Shown: positions 5,230 through 21,409 of the stretch, one piece after another
How positions within the stretch are numbered: position 1 is the stretch's first letter
How the letters are laid out: every line of letters begins with the position of its first letter
Source: Eledone cirrhosa
Taxonomy: Eukaryota
Direction of reading: 5' to 3'
Assembly (NCBI GenBank): GCA_964016885.1
Contig: OZ024748.1
Coordinates: 39,122,001-39,186,000, forward strand
Length of the DNA stretch: 64,000 nucleotides
Notes under the pieces: model-generated
What the model was told of the DNA's origin: nothing
What the model saw: the letters and a program-made list of their open reading frames with translations, nothing else
The model's database searches: none
Made by a program: the position numbers and the translations under genes

Positions 5230-5620
5230 TTTCTTCTTCGTCCAGTTATTTCTGAGAGGGTCGTGGGGTCAGAGTCCTCCAACACTCCTTCCAGCAAGTC
5301 ATGTCAGAAGCAACCGTTTCCATCTGATCCGGCTGGATCTCCCAAGCATGACCAGCCAAGCTCATGGATCTTAGCAAACCATCTTACTCAGGGTGGGTCG
5401 ATCCCTGGGTCTCTTGTCGGTTTGTTTTGCCCGTAAAATCTGTCCGGTGATTCTTTCCTGAGACATTCTAACCACATGTCCATAGTATCAGAGCTGTGAT
5501 CTCTCAATTCGGAGAAGTAGCGGCTCTACCTGGAGTAACTCTCTGATCTCAGAACTACGCACCCTATCGAGTAACATTACTCCAAAGACCCTTTAGAGGA
5601 ATCCCATTTCGGCCGCTTGT
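5230..5620 (-). mobile_element. RTE-like LINE 3' fragment
   Basis: Similar to 8700-9100 (TTCTGAGAGGGTCGTGGGG…AACACTCCTTCCAGCAAGTCATGTCAGAAGCAA…AGGAATCCCATTTCGGCC) with a (TTC)n tail; degenerate RT C-terminus. Confidence 0.65.
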
Positions 5621-5687
5621 ATTGTTTCTATTTACGAAATAACACAACTGAGGATTTTAATAGTGTCAAATTTTCGTTTCCTTTCAG

Positions 5688-7185
5688 TTCCGACTTTATC
5701 GAACCATTTAAAATACATATTGTAGAGAACATAAAGATCAATAACCGTAACGACAGATTAATTGCTCTCGAGAAAGCTGACTACAACATCTTTAAATTAC
5801 AACCTGAAGATGTCATGATCGATTTCCTTACAGATGCTGGCACTAATGCTTTCAGTCTTGAACAAAACGCAAGAATATGGATGGGTGATGAAAGTTATGC
5901 CGGATCTACTAGTTATGAAACTTTGAAAGACACGGCAACATATATTTCTGGTTTTGAAAACATTCTGCCAGTTTTTTCTGAATGTATCAGCGAAGAGATT
6001 GTCGCTTCTTATTTCACAAAAGCTGGAGATAAGGTTATTGGGAATACTTTTACTTATTCACTTGAGAAGCATATAAAGGATCTTCATGCTGAAGCGATTT
6101 CTTTGTTAGATTGGTCAGATAATAATTTTGCAGGAAATCTAGATGTTCAAGCACTCAAAAACTTATTGGCAGAAAATGATAAAAAATCAATTTCCTTTCT
6201 TATAATGAATGTACCAGCAAAAAGTAGTGGTGGCCAACCAGTTAGTATGTCAAACATGAAAGCAGTTTCTGATCTCTGTCGCGAACATTCGATTCCGATA
6301 TACATCGAAAGTAGTATGTATGGTGAGAACTGTTGGCTCAATAAAATGTACGAAGAGGCTTACTTCAATAAATCGTTAGTTGAGATATCGCAAGAAATGT
6401 TTTCTTTTTTCGATGGCTGCATTATTTCTGCTAAAAGAGATGGTAGAAGTGAGATTGGAAGTGTCATTTGTCTTCAAGACAAAGAAATGACTCGAAAATT
6501 GGGCACTGTTATTACTCTTAAAGCAGGTTTCATAACTTATGGTGGGATGGCTGGCCGAGATATGGAAATTGTAGCGGTTGGCATGCGAGATGCTTTGGAT
6601 GAACAACTGCAAGACTATCGACAAAAACAATTGGCATTTTTCAAAAAATCCCTGAAGGAATTTGGTGTTCCGATTGTGGAGCCAGTCGGTTGTAATACCA
6701 TCTTCATTGATGCCGAAAATGCTTTTCCTAACTGTAAACACGCGTTTTATCCAGCCTGGTCTTTATCTTGTGCTGTTTATATCGTCGGGGGTATCCGATG
6801 CGCAGAGTTTGGTCAAGTTACCCGTCCAACAAGCAGCTTACCCACTAATCATTTTCTGAAAGACCGAGAATTACTAAAGCTAGAGATACCTCGTTTCATC
6901 TATACGACTTGTCACATTTTCTATGTTGCCTATGTTTTCGCTCAGCTTATTTCACATGAAATGCTTTCTGGAATGAAACGTATTGCCTGCTCCGAAGACC
7001 AAATAAAAATCGTGAAAATAAAAATGAAACCAAATCATTCTCTGGAATATGACGATATCCAACTCCTTCCGGTACAAGACTGTGAACACAATCACTTCTT
7101 TAAAAACATATCTAATCAAAGAGTTATGAAAAGAAATTCAATCGCCGAGGCATCTTCTATATGGTCAGTCGACATTCCTTCTTAA
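5688..7185 (+). CDS. tnaA: Tryptophan indole-lyase (tryptophanase)/beta-eliminating lyase-like, copy 1: PLP site degenerate, catalytic Tyr retained; probably an exon
   Basis: Motifs EPFKI, YNIFKLQPEDVMIDFLTDAGT, MGDESYAGS, GGQPVSMSN, SAKRDG, GFITYGGMAGRDME and EIPRFIYT align with TnaA/TPL. The ORF-track start (5617) is TTG and there is no early ATG. A polypyrimidine tract with CAG ends at 5687, just before the homology begins. Possible donor TG|GTCAGT at 7163/7164. Confidence 0.88.
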
Positions 7186-10090: not shown

Positions 10091-11688
10091 TATCAAAATA
10101 AAGATCCGAAAGCATGGTATAAATTTCCAATCATTTTAATCACAACACGTTTCAATAAGGGATAGATCGATCGTGTGGTCATGATCGATTATCACTGATT
10201 TCATCATTTTTAACTGAGTGTGTAATACGTCTATTTACTAACTGAGAGAACTCTATGGTTAGGGTATTCTAAACCTTCCTCAGGATTTTTGGAAAGTAAC
10301 CTACCACTAACTCCTCCCTTTTTACCTTAGCCATAGAGTTCTCTCAATTAGCAAAAAATAGACAATCACACACTCAGGTAGTAGACAGCTAAGATCGTTT
10401 GCGCACCTACACACTGTACTCGGTATGTTTCCACAGAGTTCTCACAGCTGAGTGCATATTTACCATTACTTTAGAATACCTAGTTAGTAAATAGTTAGAA
10501 CAATTACACTCGCAGTTAAGACCGATTACGCGCATTCACCATTACTTTAGAATACCCTAACCATAGAGTTCTCTCAGTTAGGAAATAGACGTATTACACA
10601 CTCAGTTAAGAACGTTACGCTCTTTATACATAATTCTACACAGTACCCGGTTTCTTTAGACACAGAGTTGCCACAGTTATGACCAGTCATGATCTTGTCG
10701 ATTGAATACTACACTAGGTTTTGGTCTGTGATCCTCTAACCAAGGAGTGCTCACAGTTTGCTGAATGGACAATACTACTTACACGCCATCAATGGACTTA
10801 CACACATCCCCGGTGTTTTGTTATTTTATTTTGTGTTGGGTAACACACCTCCACCACTCAAACACTTATCTTAAAGGCCCGAGGGCCCATTTGACGGGAA
10901 AACGCACACACTGACAGCTTAACTCAAATACCCAACCCTATATGGAGCCCCTTGTTGGCCTACATGGCAGGTGCTTGCACGCACAGACTCGGGGACCCAG
11001 ATTCTCAACGGGACAACGGCACATATAGAGTTCGATACGAGCTGACTACTTGCTCTACACATGGATGTGTATATACCAAAACATACACTATTTAGACGAT
11101 ACAGATGTTACAATTCAATCGATACACGTATAGCAGAACGTTGAAGGGAATTTACTTGCGTGTGTATAGTGTTGTGGTTGACCCAATTTTTTTCTAATTT
11201 ACATCGTGAAAATTGAGATTTGACCAATATAACGTTTGTTGTTTTGTAACCTAACTTTTGGTGCATACTGTGTTGCTGTGTATATTTTTTTTTCTCTGAC
11301 CTCGCGTCGGTGTGTGTGAGTGTGTGTGCACTCAATAAAACTAATTGTGACGGACCAAAATTCTACAGATCTGGTGCTGAGATTAGACCTGTCCAGCGTC
11401 TTTTACAGCTATTGAGAGATAGAGACTTGATAGATTTATGACCCTGACTGAAGACAATAGCAGTTGTCGTGTTTGGCTGCTGATTATTCATATGGGGAAC
11501 AAAACTCCAGTGAGTGAACATCGTTAGTTTTTCCTCCCTCATATCAAAGATTTGAAGACATTTCATTATTCACCTGATGAGATCAGTGATAATCGATCAT
11601 GACCACACGATCGATCCCTTATTGAAACATGTGTCGTGATTAAAATGATTGGAAATGTATACCATGCCTTCGGATCTTTATTTTGATA
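10091..11688. mobile_element. Element bounded by ~115-bp inverted repeats carrying a hammerhead motif (Penelope-like pLTR type, non-coding)
   Basis: 10091-10206 is the near reverse complement of 11575-11688. A nested inverted repeat pairs about 10210-10273 with about 10546-10609. Confidence 0.6.
11570..11639 (+). ncRNA. Type I hammerhead ribozyme
   Basis: TCAC-CTGATGA-[GAT…ATCGATC…GATCGAT…ATT]-GAAA-C-ATGT-GTC-GTGA. Stem I is TCAC/GTGA, the core is intact, stem III carries palindromic ACATGT, and the GUC triplet is at 11633-11635. Confidence 0.7.
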
Positions 11689-11735
11689 TATATATATAAA
11701 ACTGAATTTACATTTTTTTTTCCAGTCTCCAAGCA

Positions 11736-13115
11736 ATGGAACCTTACAGGATTAAGGTATTTTATCCAGTCAATTTAATCCCCAAGTCTGACCGTATTGC
11801 ATGTCTAAAAGCTGCCAACTACAACCCCTTTCTACTTAAATCGAAAGACATATTTATAGATTTGCTAACAGATTCTGGTACAGGAAGTCAAAGCAGTGCC
11901 CAGTGGTCGGCTATGACTAAAGCCGGCTATTCAACTATTAATTCCGAATACGTTAAAGAATTTGTACGTACAATTCAACACATTACCAATTTCAAACATG
12001 TATTTCCAGTTCATCAAGGTCGAGGAGCCGAAGATTTGTTGGCAAAACTCCTACTGAATAAAGAGAGTGTTGTACTGAGTAATTCTCTGTTTGACACAAC
12101 ACGAGCACACGTTGAGTCATCTGGTGCAATTGGAATAGATTTGGCAACAAAGTCTTCAAAATTCTTAGGTGATGCCGATGTGGAAAACTTTGAAGAAACA
12201 CTGGATAAATATGGTTCTAGAGTTCATCTTGTAATAATAACCTGCACCAATAATGTGGTAGCCGGAGCTCCTGTGAGCATGCAAAATATAGAAATCATAA
12301 CAAAATTATGTCGAAACAAGAATATCCCAGTTATAATGGACGCATGCCGTTTTGTTGAAAATGCTTATTTTATCAAGACCTTAGACGAAAAATATTCTAA
12401 ACACACAATCTTAGATATTGCCAGCGAAATGTTTTCTTATTTTGATGGTGCAACTATGTCTTTAAAGAAAGATGGTATGAGCAATGGAGGTGGGTTTATA
12501 GCTTTCAACAACGACAAATGGGCCACCAAAATATTTGACATAATCGAATATAAAAGTGGTTATTCAACTTACGGGGGAATAACTGGATCAAATCTTGTAG
12601 CATGTACTGTCGGAATTTCTGAGGCTATGAACGAAAATTACCTCCGATCAAGAATCTATCAGGCTAAATTACTGGCTGATTTCTTGGAAGATAATAATAT
12701 TCCCGTATTTAAACCAGTAGGGGCCCATGCCGTCTACGTGAAAGCAAACAAAGTCTTGCCACACCTTGATTTCTTGAAGTATCCAGCATGGTCCCTTAAT
12801 TGTGCCGTATATATCGAAGGTGGTATTCGATGTGGAGAAATTGGCAATGTAATGTTTGGTGGAAATTCAGATGGAACTAAACAAATTCATCCCTTTGAAT
12901 ATGTGCGTTTGGCTTTACCCAGAAGAACCTATACGGTCAACCATCTGCATTTTGTGGCCAAAACTTTTGGTTTTGTTGCCAAAAAAGCCCATTTAATCCA
13001 CGGAATGGAAATTGTCAAATCTTCGCATCTCCTGAGACATTTCTCAATTTGGATGAGACCATTAAATGAATACCACCTTGAAAAGAATAATAATCAGAAA
13101 AAAATAAACTGTTGA
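11736..13115 (+). CDS. tnaA: Tryptophan indole-lyase (tryptophanase)-like, copy 2: PLP site intact, catalytic Tyr motif degenerate
   Basis: 459 aa with EPYRIK, IDLLTDSGTG, HQGRGAE, FDTTRAH, TCTNN, MDACRFVENAYFIK, SLKKDG (PLP Lys codon 12468), RLALPRRTYT and LRHFS. FDTT and LRHF are TIL-type (TPL has FTTT and LRFF). An acceptor TTTTTTTTTCCAG ends at 11725, so the exon may start at 11726. Confidence 0.92.
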   Translation: MEPYRIKVFYPVNLIPKSDRIACLKAANYNPFLLKSKDIFIDLLTDSGTGSQSSAQWSAMTKAGYSTINSEYVKEFVRTIQHITNFKHVFPVHQGRGAEDLLAKLLLNKESVVLSNSLFDTTRAHVESSGAIGIDLATKSSKFLGDADVENFEETLDKYGSRVHLVIITCTNNVVAGAPVSMQNIEIITKLCRNKNIPVIMDACRFVENAYFIKTLDEKYSKHTILDIASEMFSYFDGATMSLKKDGMSNGGGFIAFNNDKWATKIFDIIEYKSGYSTYGGITGSNLVACTVGISEAMNENYLRSRIYQAKLLADFLEDNNIPVFKPVGAHAVYVKANKVLPHLDFLKYPAWSLNCAVYIEGGIRCGEIGNVMFGGNSDGTKQIHPFEYVRLALPRRTYTVNHLHFVAKTFGFVAKKAHLIHGMEIVKSSHLLRHFSIWMRPLNEYHLEKNNNQKKINC

Positions 13116-13439
13116 AGTTTGCCATAAATTACGATGTCAGTTATCTCTTGTGTACAGAAGAAGTTCATTAGAAGTATATATCACACTGGCCAAATTACCC
13201 ACACCTTGCTGCGTTTCACACTTTTTTTTTTTTTAAAGAAAATGATGAATGATTTTAAATCAGCGATATAATTTATAGAGAAAAACTCTGCATTTCAATA
13301 TTACTCAATGTAAAATGTAATGCATGAAAAATTGGAAAACATTATTTTTTGTTATATATCAAATCAAAATTACATCATTAAATCTGATTCTTATTTTGTT
13401 TCTTGTAAATAATTTTTTTCAAAATATCAATTCAAAACT

Positions 13440-13690
13440 TTTGTGAATAGGGCATCATATCTTGTCATTTACCTATGGTTTAAATTTCATATAAATCGAA
13501 AGGAAAAAATTTTCAGCAGGGATTTGTGCCTCCGGGGAACCCTTTGATTAAAATGAAATATACTTATCCAAGTAACCTGGGAAATGTAGTTTCAGAATAT
13601 ATATGGTTATGGGGATCTAGCTCCAAAACTATAGGAGGAGTTCATGAACAAACAAACAGACAGGAACTACAACTTTATATATATAGATTA
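13440..13690. mobile_element. Partial copy of the 2366-3200 Helitron-like repeat
   Basis: Shares GTGAATAGG…CATATCTTGTCATTTACCTATGGTTTAAATTTC…CCCTTTGATTAAAATGAAATATAC with the first copy, and has an ACAAACAAACAGACAG tail. Confidence 0.65.
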
Positions 13691-13819
13691 CTACCTACGT
13701 TTAAATGGGTTTTATATAAATGAATTTAAATGGCTTTTAATGGGTACATGTGTGTGCTTATATTAGTGAAGAAGTGCTTGCTTAATAACTATGACATATG
13801 ACTTCATAACACATATTAT

Positions 13820-14010
13820 TGTGGTGGATTGGCAGTATTGGGAGAGGGTCGGATGCCATGCTTTGACGTATAGAGTTACGGCCCTTGCCATTCTGAGTTC
13901 AAATCCCGCCGAGGTTAACTTTGCCTTTCATCCTTACGGGGTCGATAAAATAAAGTACCAGTAATGCACTGGATATTTGCTGACCGTGTGCCTAACTTAG
14001 AAACAATTAT
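13820..14010 (+). mobile_element. tRNA-derived SINE
   Basis: A-box-like TGGATTGGCAG and B-box GAGTTCAAATCCC, then the conserved body TTTGCCTTTCATCCTTACGGGGTCGATAAAATAAAGTACCAGT. Confidence 0.75.
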
Positions 14011-14599
14011 AAAGAGAAATTCGTATTTTCTTGCATGTTTACATGCCTACATATTAAATATATGTATAGTTCTACACACAGTCTCAGCTACACACTCTGT
14101 ATTTATACAGATATAATTTTATCATTCACTATGGCTGTTAGCATACTTCTTAATATATATATATTAAATAAGTACCAATACAAACGCTAATTAAATGCAA
14201 ATTAATTTCATTGGTACAAGAGATTTCAACACATTCTGCTTTTCAACTCGGCAAAAATACAGAGAGTTTGGCTAATATAGCAACATAGCTACACACACTT
14301 GCTAACCCTAACCCCTGCCGAAATTGAAACTAGCTGAGTTTGCTTCACAGGTTACTAAATATCACGACTATGTATTCTACAATTGCACACACAATATACT
14401 GCATGTATACTTGCACCTTTTTCTGTTTTCATTGCTGCACCTTAACAACGAAGTAAATCATTTTATAAATAAAAATATTTAAATTAGCAGTGTCTTGTTT
14501 ATTTGTTAATTCTTATCCACGTGATTTGGAAAAATCATCTTACCCAGGGTAATATCACTTCACAGTACACATCAGGAGTGGTTTATTTGACCAATACGG

Positions 14600-14815
14600 T
14601 CAAACTTCTCTGGACTCGCAGACATACTTGGCATTGCTTCACCAACATAGTAAAACCAACCAGCAGGAGTCCCAGGGGTAGACCCCAAGCAGGATGGATG
14701 GATAACATCCATGAGCTTGGCTGGTCTTGCTTGGGGATCGAGCCAGATCAGTTGGAAACGGTTGCTTCTGACAGAACCTGCTGGAAGGAGTGTCTGAGGA
14801 TTCTGCAACAGCATT
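14600..14815 (+). mobile_element. RTE-like LINE 3' fragment
   Basis: RSPRGRPQAGWMDNI…LETVASDRTCWK is the LINE ORF2 C-terminal motif; it is the reverse-complement homologue of about 8740-8910. Confidence 0.7.
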
Positions 14816-15182
14816 TGGAAGATTATACTGAAGACTTGGGCATGTGGAAGAGCTGCATGAAGCTACTTAATGATGAGCAGAAAGAGCGACATGTGCAGGT
14901 GCGTAAGCACATCCTCAAGCATTTTGAAATCAAACCAGACATTTTCCTTTTCCCCAAGCTGAAGAGGGTCATCAGAGGAACCTGAGGTAGAAGCCATGAA
15001 GAGGGCTATATTAGCAGAGCTATGGAAAATTCTGGGTGAATCCATCCAAGAGTGCAGGGAGAAGAAAGATGGGAAATTGTGTTTGACCCAAGGGGGATTA
15101 TTCTGAAAAGGAAAACTTCTAGTTCGGATTTAAAATATTTTATTTTGCAACTTCTGTCCTGTTTCTTTTCTGTCACTCCATA
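14816..15182 (+). mobile_element. Degraded mariner-like transposase fragment
   Basis: Peptides KLLNDEQKERHVQV and PDIFLFPKLKRVIRG resemble mariner transposase motifs; deleted and frameshifted. Confidence 0.55.
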
Positions 15183-15195
15183 TATATATATATAC

Positions 15196-15525
15196 ATGGC
15201 TTAGTGGTTAGAGCATTTTCCTTGCAATCGAAAGGTTTGAGTTCAATTCTCAGACCGGGTGATGTGTTGTTTCCTTGAGCAAGACACTTTATTTCACATT
15301 GCTCCAGTTTACTCAGCTGTAGAAATGAGATGATAGGGACTGGGGTCCCTATCATTCCACTGCAAAGTGGTCATGGAGGTGCCACGGCAAAAAAGCACCC
15401 AGCACTCACTGTAAATGAGGTTGGTGTTAGGAAGGGCATCCAGCTGTAGAAATCAAGCCAGAATCAGTTCCCGTCCTACCCTTGCAAGCAGGGAAAAGTG
15501 GACGTAAAATGATGATGATGATGAT
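15196..15525 (+). mobile_element. tRNA-derived SINE(s), second family
   Basis: GGCTTAGTGGTTAGAGC (A box) and GAGTTCAATTC (B box), followed by CCTTGAGCAAGACACTTTATTTCAC, GGAAGGGCATCCAGCTGTAGAAA and an (ATG)n tail. Confidence 0.7.
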
Positions 15526-16288
15526 ATATATGGATAATAGGATGAATTTGGTACAACCAATAAATTATAAAGGCAACAAATATTTTCTTGTTTTAATATT
15601 GCAGTTTATACATATCTTAAGAAGCAGTATAAGAAAAGCTTACATTTCATTTTCAAACTTAAGTAAAAAATAAAATATATATTTATTTTCAATTTTTAAA
15701 ATGCGAGCAAAAACATAAAATCGATTTCAATATTCATCACACACACATATATATACATGTATATTATTTGGAAAAAAAAAGGGGGTGGGGTAAAGTTTTA
15801 TACAAAAAAATGATGACCAGTTCGAATATTTGAGAGAAAACTCAAGTATATTCGAACTGCTCAGATATTAAAAAATTTTTTTTTATTAATATTCAATATT
15901 TAACATCTAATATTTGATAAAATTGTTTTACCAATCGAAACCAGTTATATTTAATGCAACAATTATAAAATTATTCATTCTGTCAGATTAAAGAAAAAAT
16001 AATCTTTTAATATTCCCTGGACTTTGGCAATTTCAACCCCCTACCAACAGTACTGCTGGTTCACTCTGGGTCACAGCGTTTGAGACAAGTCAGAGCGTAG
16101 AGGCCAAATAATTATTTTAAATTATTCTATGAAAAATAAAAATTAATTACACGTATCTAAATATCACAATTTATTTTGTTGGATGATCTACCAACTTTGC
16201 CATCAACCAGTCATTTCTATCAAATAATTTCCAATAATATTTGTGAATATGAAAAGGTAAAGAAAGATCTATATATGTGTGTGTATAT

Positions 16289-17317
16289 ATAACGTCTGAA
16301 TAGCTCAGGCTGTCATAACTGATAGTCCTCGGTGAAATGTGTATAACGTCTGAAGAGCTCAGGCTGTCATAACTGATAGTCCTCAGTGAAATATGTATAA
16401 CGTCTGAAGAGCTCAGGCTGTCATAACTGATAGTCCTCAGTGAAATATGTATAACGTCTGAAGAGCTCAGGCTGTCATAACTGATAGTCCTCAGTGAAAT
16501 GTGTATAACGTCTGAAGAGCTCAGGCTGTCATAACTGATTGTCCTCGGTGAAATGTGTATAACGTCTGAAGAGCTCAGGCTGTCATAACTGATAGTCCTC
16601 AGTGAAATATGTATAACGTCTGAAGAGCTCAGGCTGTCATAACTGATAGTCCTCAGTGAAATATGTATAACGCCTGAAGAGCTCAGGCTGTCATAACTGA
16701 TAGTCCTCGGTGAAATGTGTATAACGTCTGAAGAGCTCAGGCTGTCATAACTGATAGTCCTCAGTGAAATATGTATAACGTCTGAAGAGCTCAGGCTGTC
16801 ATAACTGATAGTCCTCAGTGAAATATGTATAACGTCTGAAGAGCTCAGGCTGTCATAACTGATAGTCCTCAGTGAAATGAGTATAACGTCTGAAGAGCTC
16901 AGATTGTCATAACTGATAGTCCTCGGTGAAATGTGTATAACGTCTGAAGAGCTCAGGCTGTCATAACTGATAGTCCTCAGTGTAATATGTATAACGTCTG
17001 AAGAGCTCAGGCTGTCATAACTGATAGTCCTCAGTGAAATATGTATAACGTCTGAAGAGCTCAGGCTGTCATAACTGATAGTCCTCAGTGAAATGAGTAT
17101 AACGTCTGAAGAGCTCAGGCTGTCATAACTGATAGTCCTCGGTGAAATGTGTATAACGTCTGAAGAGCTCAGGCTGTCATAACTGATAGTCCTCGGTGAA
17201 ATGTGTATAACGTCTGAAGAGCTCAGGCTGTCATAACTGATAGTCCTCAGTGAAATATGTATAACGTCTGAAGAGCTCAGGCTGTCATACCTGATAGTCC
17301 TCAGTGAAATGTGTATA
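16289..17317 (+). repeat. 54-bp x19 tandem array; each monomer is a minimal hammerhead ribozyme
   Basis: Unit ATAACGT-CTGAAGA-GCTCAGGCTGTCA TAAC TGATAGTCCTCAGT-GAAA-TATGT/TGTGT; units start at 16289+54n for n=0-18. Confidence 0.9.
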
Positions 17318-17547
17318 GCAGAGTTTTAAATAAATCTGAATCGACTGATAATGGCCTCCAACCTTTTAATAGTGTGTGTATACAAATGAGATTGTTTAGC
17401 CTTATATACCTTTCCACAATAATATATATATATATATAAGTAGAAGTGGTATTTAATTTGTTGGAAGTCCGACAAACATAGATGTTTATAACTGATTTAG
17501 AGCACTCAACAAATTACTGGAGTAAATATTCAATGATATTAAATAAA

Positions 17548-18230
17548 TGGAAACTATATTTATAAAACTATATTTATAAACTATAGTTTTATAAATATAG
17601 TTTTTTAAATATAGTTTTTTAAATATAGTTTTATAAATATAGTTTATAAATATAGTTTTATAAACTATATTTATAAAACTATATTTATAAAACTATATTT
17701 ATAAAACTATATTTATAAAACTATTTTATAAAACTATTTTATAAAACTATTTTATAAAACTATATTTATAAAACTATATTTATAAAACTATATTTATAAA
17801 ACTATATTTATAAAACTATATTTATAAAACTATTTTATAAAACTATTTTATAAAATTATATTTATAAAACTATATTTATAAAACTATATTTATAAAACTA
17901 TATTTATAAAACTATATTTATAAAACTATATTTATAAAACTATATTTATAAAACTATTTTATAAAACTATTTTATAAAACTATATTTATAAAACTATATT
18001 TATAAAACTATATTTATAAAACTATATTTATAAAACTATTTTATAAAACCATATTTATAAAACTATATTTATAAAATTATATTTATAAAACCATATTTAT
18101 AAAATTATATTTATAAAACTATTTTATAAAACTATATTTATAAAACTATATTTATAAAACTATATTTATAAAACTATATTTATAAAACCATATTTATAAA
18201 ACTATATTTATAAAACTATATTTATAAAAT
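17548..18230. repeat. AT-rich 13-14-bp minisatellite (AAAACTATATTTAT)n with a short inverted block
   Basis: Read directly; about 17582-17660 is in the opposite orientation (ATAGTTTTATAAAT). Confidence 0.9.
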
Positions 18231-18932: not shown

Positions 18933-20562
18933 TTCAAAAGGAATATAAATTAAAATAAGGAAAGAATGTTACATAAATGTAATGTTCCATATATTGGTAT
19001 TTCACTATGGTGACCTGGGTATATCAATTGTCTGCCATAGTCGAGCAGTATTCTTCTGTCGAGGCTGCATTGTGTGAGATCTGCCTATGGGTAACAAGAT
19101 GGTCGCCAATGGACATATTTACCTTACTAATTAGAGGGTGGTTTCAGGGGAAGTAACTCCTCGAGAGATTAGAAATTGTGGGTAGTTTATAGTTAAGTGC
19201 TAATTTTTTTATTTTGAGACAATGTAAGGGAGGTAACTTATAATTATTTAAGTTAGTTATAGCTATTTAACTTATTAGCTACAAGTAAAAATGGGGCTAG
19301 ATGACTATGTTGGCGAAGGAATTAGCCCTTCGATGTTGACAGCTAATAGTTACCTTCGTTCTATCATTAATCAGTTGAGGTTGTGATAGAGTTATGTAAT
19401 ATGCTTCGGTAAGACAGAGGTCACAAGATTTTCTTCGTCCATTGAACGGTTGGGCCCTGAGTGTTAGTGAGTGTTCAATGTTGGTTAATTTAAGGTTTTT
19501 AATGAGCCTAGCTAGAGATGTCGAACATCTGTTGTTAGGGTCTCAGAAGGAAAAAGAGTGCGCGTTATAGCGTACATTAAAAGGTTTAGAGGTAGACCCA
19601 ATATAGGAGCTGGTATGCGAAGCAGTTTTAACTGTGCATCTATAGACTATGTTGGGTGTCAGGCAATGTCCATTTAGTGGGCATGCATTAGGGTAACGGC
19701 AGTTACAGTTACTTCTGCGGTTAGTGAGAGTAGGGTTGTTTAACCTAAGCGGTTGGTCAGTGCTAGAAGGATTAGATGGGGGAGGTGTGCTACTAGAGTA
19801 AGTATTGGTGTAGTGGCGTGGTGTATCCGATGGGGGGTGGTGGTACCGCGGTGTGGGAGTTATACTGTCTTAGTTTATCATGGTTACTGAATGTGATGTG
19901 GCAAGCTAAGTTAGGTGTTGTGGAGAATGAGATTTTAATGTTATTTTTATTAAAGAGTTTGTAATATCTATGGTGGGGGGGGGGTTTAGATAGGATAGAC
20001 AAGAAGCATTTAGGGATATTAGTGGCTAGATTAGATGAGAATGGGGGGTTAAGCCAGGTGATATTTCTAGGCATATTCCTTCTAGGGGTTCTAGTGGAGT
20101 TGGAACATTACATTTATGTAACATTCTTTCCTTATTTTAATTTATATTCCTTTTGAAGTTCCGATGAGCTGCTCTATCTTTACCTATGTTAATTATTTTC
20201 AACTGAACCAGATCAATAATGATATATAATCATTTGATCCAGAAATATTATATGGAGTAGAGAAACAATTGTAAACGGACATTATTATTATTAATATTAT
20301 TATTATTAGTCTCTACATTCCTTACATCAAACTAAAATATGTTGACAATCTTTTAATAATGTCTTCCTTGTGAAATGTGTGGTCTTGTTTCACTTAACTA
20401 ATGAATATTTCCAGCTCTGTGCACCTAACCTCTGCATGAACCCAGCCACCTAGCTGCTTTCTACTGCATATTGCACATTGAGCACATGCCTTTACGCTTT
20501 GGCTTCTAACTAATTCACCAATCTCTCCTTTATCTCTCTCTTTAAGATTGGTTACTCTTGAA

Positions 20563-21351: not shown

Positions 21352-21409
21352 ACTGCCTGAAGAGGAGGTCACAGCCAAAGATGGCTGTCACCGAAATATA
21401 TATAGCAGT
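21352..21409 (+). ncRNA. Minimal type I hammerhead ribozyme (same family as 1501-1556)
   Basis: ACTGC-CTGAAGA-GGAGGTCACAGCCA AAGA TGGCTGTCACC-GAAA-TATAT-ATA-GCAGT; there is an extra GGA at the base of stem II. Confidence 0.7.

Follow-up and report, generated by a model that had tools for sequence, protein, structure and literature searches.

The window analysed here, a 64-kb stretch of DNA taken as a whole, carries a tandem array of hammerhead ribozyme cores within a segmental duplication. The features on which the following depends are these, in window positions:

14901 to 17545, no strand assigned: segmental duplication carrying the array, with flanks common to eight further loci on the same contig (upstream ~98-99% alike)
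16277 to 16287, + strand: 11-bp low-complexity word upstream of the array, possible target-site duplication
16292 to 17317, + strand: hammerhead array with a period of 54 bp and 19 units, in which a minimal type I core alternates with a 4-nt linker (TRF and unit cutting)
16292 to 16295, + strand: first ACGT linker, starting at the predicted cleavage site and recurring every 54 bp (unit cutting and comparison with the parent arms)
16350 to 16399, + strand: reference core of unit 2, with CUGAAGA, stem II (8 bp inner and 3 bp outer, first pair G-U), GAAA, a palindromic stem III and the AUA triplet
17318 to 17371, + strand: 3' sequence of the parent family, in which a stem I arm decayed to GCAG is followed by AATAAA (17329-17334) and a short tail
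17372 to 17382, + strand: second copy of the 11-bp word, downstream of the array, possible target-site duplication

Two intronless ORFs lie on the + strand of the window (5575-7185 and 11706-13115; 536 and 469 codons from stop to stop, 30% identical) and have strong Pfam matches to beta-eliminating lyase (E 1e-36 and 7e-52), which we take to resemble bacterial tryptophanase or tyrosine phenol-lyase. They may have been acquired horizontally into the animal genome. There is no further lyase copy in the 20 kb upstream, and the depth in one run is similar, ~81-85, over the second ORF and over unique DNA on the side of the array.

The array is a real feature. TRF placed the repeat at 16288-17317 with a period of 54, 19.1 copies and 96% matches, and cutting at the linker gave 19 units of 54 bp (16292-17317; 10 distinct sequences, 8 units identical), as proposed in a preliminary description made from the letters of the window alone. 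That description had also assigned a minimal hammerhead to each unit, and its elements are indeed there: a unit reads linker ACGU, CUGAAGA, the stem II hairpin, GAAA and AUAUGUAU, the last overlapping the AUA cleavage triplet. The linker is ACGU in 18 of the 19 units and ACGC in one. Cores are intact in 17/19; besides unit 1 (16292), already recognised as broken, unit 13 (16940, GAAA to GUAA) is broken too and had been overlooked. The type I core CUGAnGA...GAAA...UH of the minimal hammerheads found in the pLTRs of Penelope-like elements (PLEs) thus occurs in 17/19 units, and the long helix II, the helix I of 4-5 bp and the palindromic helix III of that class are all present. As had been pointed out, the array has no stem I arms other than its successive ACGU linkers, and only these can pair to close that stem. 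Two readings of the other stems have to be revised. The first pair of stem II is G-U and not G-C, and stem III, taken as minimal, is a palindrome: AUAUGUAU can form 2 bp inside a unit and 8 bp across a pair of them. A unit of the array thus probably needs its neighbour for stem III as well as for stem I. The last unit does continue into GCAGAG and AATAAA (17318-17334), but the likeness then drawn to the solo hammerheads at 1501 and 21352 does not hold: both exist and belong to other sequence families. These two (1501-1556 on the - strand and 21352-21409 on the + strand) have a 5-bp stem I and a G-C pair at the base of stem II, and are followed by AATAAA. The covariance search proposed at the time was run with Rfam, and none of its 12 hits at E<=1 is to a hammerhead. 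The 11-bp word occurs four times within window positions 1-22200 and is hence weak as a target-site duplication. Contigs from two runs of unrecorded kind align at 17258-17560 and 10600-16340, both covering the last unit and the tail; we draw no conclusion on expression from them.

The window belongs to a genome of 3.0 Gb in 1796 contigs, the repeats of which have a cephalopod-like look. Searching DNA with the unit plus its tail retrieved dispersed solo copies across many contigs. The earlier mention of a pLTR fragment as the source is supported, and the fragment is of Penelope type. The same core, with a 4-bp stem I, was found in 44 solo copies from 33 loci (duplicate loci and array loci are excluded from the solo counts). 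In this parent, stem I is CCGU/ACGG; the commonest 5' arm is GCCGT (15/44 solos) and the commonest 3' arm ACGG, most of the others being CpG-decay variants. The linker ACGT is the parent's 3' arm ACGG fused with its 5' arm CCGT at the CG that they share. The first pair of stem II, which has no extra base before it, contains U in 41/44 solos, which makes the G-U pair a trait of the family. An exact 24-letter pattern of the parent's 3' boundary has 291 matches genome-wide and is matched by 24 of 62 sampled solos, from which we estimate a family of ~750 hammerhead copies, the solo samples having been gathered with queries from the commoner flank type and being biased towards it.

Copies of this family are 5'-truncated, are often accompanied by an inverted second copy, and have a tail at TA repeats; the family also forms head-to-tail units of ~1.8 kb, one of them with internal deletions. 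This fits the insertion anatomy that the available text of a study of Penelope-like elements describes, namely partial tandems, an inverted 5'-truncated copy, a tail and microsatellite targets (10.1101/2021.04.23.441226). Two co-inserted end repeats carry a common private deletion, so variants common to both units of a dimer need no later duplication. One inverted end repeat (L136:2146-2397, + strand) reads from its ATG, without a change of frame, into a GIY-YIG piece of 84 aa (21.1 bits, under the Pfam cut-off of 22.6; E 4e-4) that is absent from every other fetched locus, and is possibly a chimera with an autonomous element. Walking upstream did not reveal an RT gene of the family, the unit there being ~1.8 kb long and mostly non-coding. 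We also considered the family tail as a decayed GIY-YIG domain because of a likeness by eye, and dropped the idea when tblastn gave it no support. In the window itself, broken ORF pieces at 19543-20107 (- strand) combine a Cys-rich motif with YIG and have no Pfam hit; they look like remains of the C-terminal region of a Penelope-like protein.

Genome-wide, 382 sites match the exact junction pattern, all within 14 loci, and its reversed control has 0. With the core recurring in 44 solo copies that have a 4-bp stem I, this shows that the hammerhead array is not due to chance. When any linker of 0-4 nt was allowed, 396 matches were obtained, every one with a 4-nt linker and in the same 14 loci; linkers of 5-30 nt gave one match genome-wide, outside the family. 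The element also offers GTTTT, a 5-bp microhomology that is longer than CG and would give a period of 65, and no such 65-bp product was found in the genome. The 14 loci fall into six flank settings. The first comprises nine loci of one segmental duplication, the window array included, with upstream flanks ~98-99% alike and 12-93 scored units; this duplication spans 39.1-40.1 Mb of the window's contig, C8 (L110-L117), in at least nine copies, mostly ~50-90 kb apart. Settings two to five are four small arrays with ACGT joints (two dimers, a trimer and a 12-mer) that retain the flanks of the parent on both sides. The sixth is a satellite of at least 757 units, 41 kb long and running off its contig (C1765:1-40900). 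The whole series, from solo copies through dimer, trimer, 12-mer and 93-mer to a satellite, is thus present in a single genome and has a single joint, which lies inside stem I; the arrays occur on two flank types. One of the dimers (L045, at 424.87 Mb of C1) has an extra duplication of 7-8 bp across the cleavage site, after its second unit. Sister arrays of the window array contain units of 58 and 52 bp, which break the frame of a minus-strand open frame of 384 codons with 18-residue repeats; as this frame also has no upstream Met and only a sub-threshold Pfam hit, we rejected a protein-coding repeat. Hammerheads whose core is C-GAAA did not yield a similar joint (of 2 matches, one belongs to this family and the other is not a tandem).

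We favour, with a probability of roughly 0.55, the view that the array is a minisatellite of a Penelope end-repeat hammerhead, whose seed joint arose by a template switch of the reverse transcriptase across stem I and which then grew by unequal DNA exchange in a segmental duplication, without a selected ribozyme role. Where a transcript carries two end repeats, the downstream hammerhead would pair its 5' arm (CCGU) with the 3' arm of the upstream one (ACGG), in the manner of a double hammerhead; the enzyme, which copies from 3' to 5', would change template at the CG common to both arms, omit the interior of ~1.8 kb and write core-ACGT-core. Once two copies adjoin, their number would be altered by DNA slippage and unequal crossing-over, and indeed copy number differs between duplicated loci with common flanks, which places the expansion after the dimer at the level of DNA. 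In favour of the switch, the joint lies always in stem I despite the longer microhomology, and tandem copies with internal deletions, as well as inverted 5' copies, are among the known products of the family. When two parent copies form a double hammerhead, it is predicted to lie 4.6 kcal/mol below two monomers and 4.1 kcal/mol above the competing dimer fold. The reciprocal deletion of the core has 0 matches, a weak result because the search covers only the commoner flank type (2/6 settings). It is likely that the RNA fold guides where the copying enzyme slips, giving the same joint in six settings. More tentatively, and with less than even odds in our judgement, the core-ACGT-core joint could be the genomic fossil of a double-hammerhead fold adopted in vivo: the end repeats of a Penelope transcript would cross-pair via stem I, a telomerase-like RT would switch strand there, and this would seed tandem repeats made of ribozyme only, in which a shared palindromic linker rebuilds stem I and some of whose multimers would be retrotransposable again.

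The joint might instead have arisen purely in DNA. The new strand of a solo copy would fold back via stems I and II, re-prime at the 2-bp CG and duplicate 54 bp, several times over, with neutral expansion afterwards. On both strands, the DNA fold of lowest energy has stem I closed (pair probability ~0.23 and 0.45). In each of the two dimers, both units have 2 variants seldom met in solos, and these dimers look younger than inverted pairs. The end units of the three smallest arrays differ at 3/50 positions each, compared with a mean of 4.9 in 16 co-inserted inverted pairs, 5/16 of which are at <=3; the chance of three arrays at <=3 differences is ~0.03, calculated post hoc, and the evidence leans towards duplication after insertion. 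Yet DNA folding does not single out the CG/54 joint among 1363 microhomology pairs in the element, neither the reciprocal deletion nor the 65-bp product of the longer microhomology turned up, and 62 solos contain no internal tandem duplication, a comparison of low power. Moreover, six exact events among ~750 copies are, by estimate, far above the ordinary rates of 54-bp duplication. We rank the enzyme switch first and DNA slippage second as the source of the seed joint, and regard the second as a serious competitor that is nevertheless improbable. A single origin of the joint, followed by its spread to other solos through gene conversion or through small DNA circles or cDNA that an array gives off and that integrate elsewhere, would account for the stem II variant 21G, which is enriched in joint-bearing loci (4/5 non-satellite settings against 6/62 solos, p ~0.005, for one site chosen post hoc) and hints at exchange between them; it would also account for the trimer, whose first unit is of a different type from the next two. 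It sits badly with the two dimers, which have their own variants in both units and one of which is without 21G, and with the scatter of the settings on the tree. In a phylogeny of 63 solos with both family flanks and 6 arrays, the array label needs 5 changes for six settings and a single clade is marginally rejected (p-AU 0.0455), whereas with only the four arrays that have both flanks it is not (p-AU 0.099), and support is poor throughout (4 starred of 66 branches). Judging from these sequences, the joint likely had several origins, and a single one followed by spread seems to us quite improbable.

The preliminary description had gone further and suggested that the array could be an ultra-minimal retrozyme-like unit whose transcripts process themselves into 54-nt monomers or multimers, possibly circular. 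A fuller version would have array transcripts cut themselves into units of 54 or 108 nt, which form circles and are retrotransposed by a Penelope enzyme. In its favour, 299 of the 322 units of the duplicated loci have an intact core, a poly(A)-like signal lies downstream of the array, and the array begins at a joint, without the parent's 5' flank and between two 11-bp words, as a retrocopied multimer would. The founder of the window array may in fact be the retrocopy of a multimer, and the flanking words are compatible with this. The 11-bp repeat is, however, confined to one of the six settings; four arrays lie inside intact parent flanks, and the 5' end of the satellite is beyond its contig. 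The spectrum of variants is also neutral. The 11 catalytic positions hold 7/32 of the distinct variants in the nine duplicated loci and 12/54 in the satellite, against 22% expected, so the core is not depleted of variants in either. In the satellite, GAAA is GGAA in 491/757 units, and only 254/757 cores are intact, 503/757 being broken. In the duplicated loci the frequency-weighted variant load is lower in the core (0.007 vs 0.025), an average that rests on few high-frequency variants, chiefly one in the loop of stem III. Copy number varies between duplicates. Minimal PLE hammerheads are, in the available text, poor cutters in vitro (PMC4209133), cleaving weakly or else needing protein (PMC4209133; PMC11167929); out of 9 predicted retrozyme dimers, 8 showed no cleavage (Li et al. 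2026, 10.64898/2026.07.22.740005). Everything considered, an active retrozyme is the reading that we think least probable, and very much so. The fallback offered beside it, an expansion of a pLTR fragment, fits better, except that it does not foresee a seed joint that is recurrent and exact.

Folding points in the same direction. In models without tertiary and Mg2+ terms, the cleaving form lies above the ensemble by 5.6 kcal/mol in the monomer, 5.0 in an isolated dimer and 10-12 in longer multimers, against 4.8 in the parent solo; the larger gap in longer multimers comes from a GAGCUC palindrome, overlapping the core, through which different units pair and which is predicted to cause misfolding. 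A full double hammerhead is impossible in adjacent units, where a single ACGU would have to serve as both of its own partners. A site that combines the core of one unit, n, with the triplet of the next, n+1, is predicted to be able to form, and since it needs both units a ladder in cis would likely favour 108 nt, so that the stable product of any cis cleavage would likely be a 108-nt dimer and not a 54-nt monomer. Any cleavage would likely be weak, with two units per active site. Given the undepleted core, the mostly broken largest array and the predicted misfolding of multimers, the array likely expands as DNA and not as replicating RNA, and the window array is most likely passive repeat DNA. 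Two patterns among the variants were set aside. A-to-I editing as a source of variants was rejected, A>G and T>C sites being equal (5 and 5) in the duplicated arrays. A T>C change in stem II, in 10/12 units at one locus, looks compensatory, and we did not use it as evidence, since such changes can arise by palindrome repair in DNA.

The family shares with the minimal hammerheads of PLE pLTRs, as far as the available text describes them (PMC4209133), the core, the long helix II, the 4-bp helix I and a palindromic helix III, which is there the mark of hammerheads acting as dimers, with dimeric action presumed; it shares also the prevalence of solo copies from truncated elements and the inverted pairs a few hundred bp apart. 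It differs from that description in the G-U first pair of stem II, in place of the conserved G10.1-C11.1, without an extra base before the pair, and the array differs in that nothing but the core is repeated in tandem, the self-complementary stem I being common to neighbouring units. Like the metazoan non-LTR retrozymes of PMC7229834, in the text available, the array consists of tandem repeats of low GC with one type I hammerhead per unit, from dimers to long multimers. Canonical retrozymes, described in the same source as having units of 150-450 bp and abundant circular RNA, combine that length with a canonical hammerhead and a contact between loops 1 and 2, and the array falls outside on these counts (54 bp, a 4-bp stem I and no Rfam hammerhead match). 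By the operational definition of Li et al. (2026, 10.64898/2026.07.22.740005), in the text available, the array counts as a non-LTR retrozyme. Their PLE-derived retrozymes resemble it in having at least 2 complete motifs in tandem and a pLTR origin, and in local amplification, which they propose to start from PLE terminal sequence; their consensus lengths of 51-972 bp include 54 bp.

What is already known from the available text of that study, then, is that tandem hammerhead repeats with units down to 51 bp come from Penelope ends; what is new is the recurrent, exact joint in stem I. The same text does not describe the joint, its exact recurrence or the shared stem I; cephalopod-like genomes are outside its sample, and its supplementary tables may hold families of 51-60 bp. 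In a literature search that covered few subscription papers and no bioRxiv supplements, we found no account of a recurrent joint in stem I or of a G10.1-U11.1 pair. Judging from the available text of these sources (PMC4209133; Li et al. 2026), it is open in the field whether the minimal Penelope hammerheads of animals really associate as dimers inside cells, and by what route Penelope ends give rise to retrozymes and satellites. A series from solo to satellite with one joint offers a cheap test of the dimer model, the recurrent joint being the testable part.

The array is one of several repeats in the window. At 17551-18229 lies a 14-bp AT-rich minisatellite of 49 copies; a 48-bp satellite of ~878 copies with a strong C-over-G skew fills 22203-64000, and a Tc1/mariner-like helix-turn-helix remnant lies at 785-1165 on the - strand.
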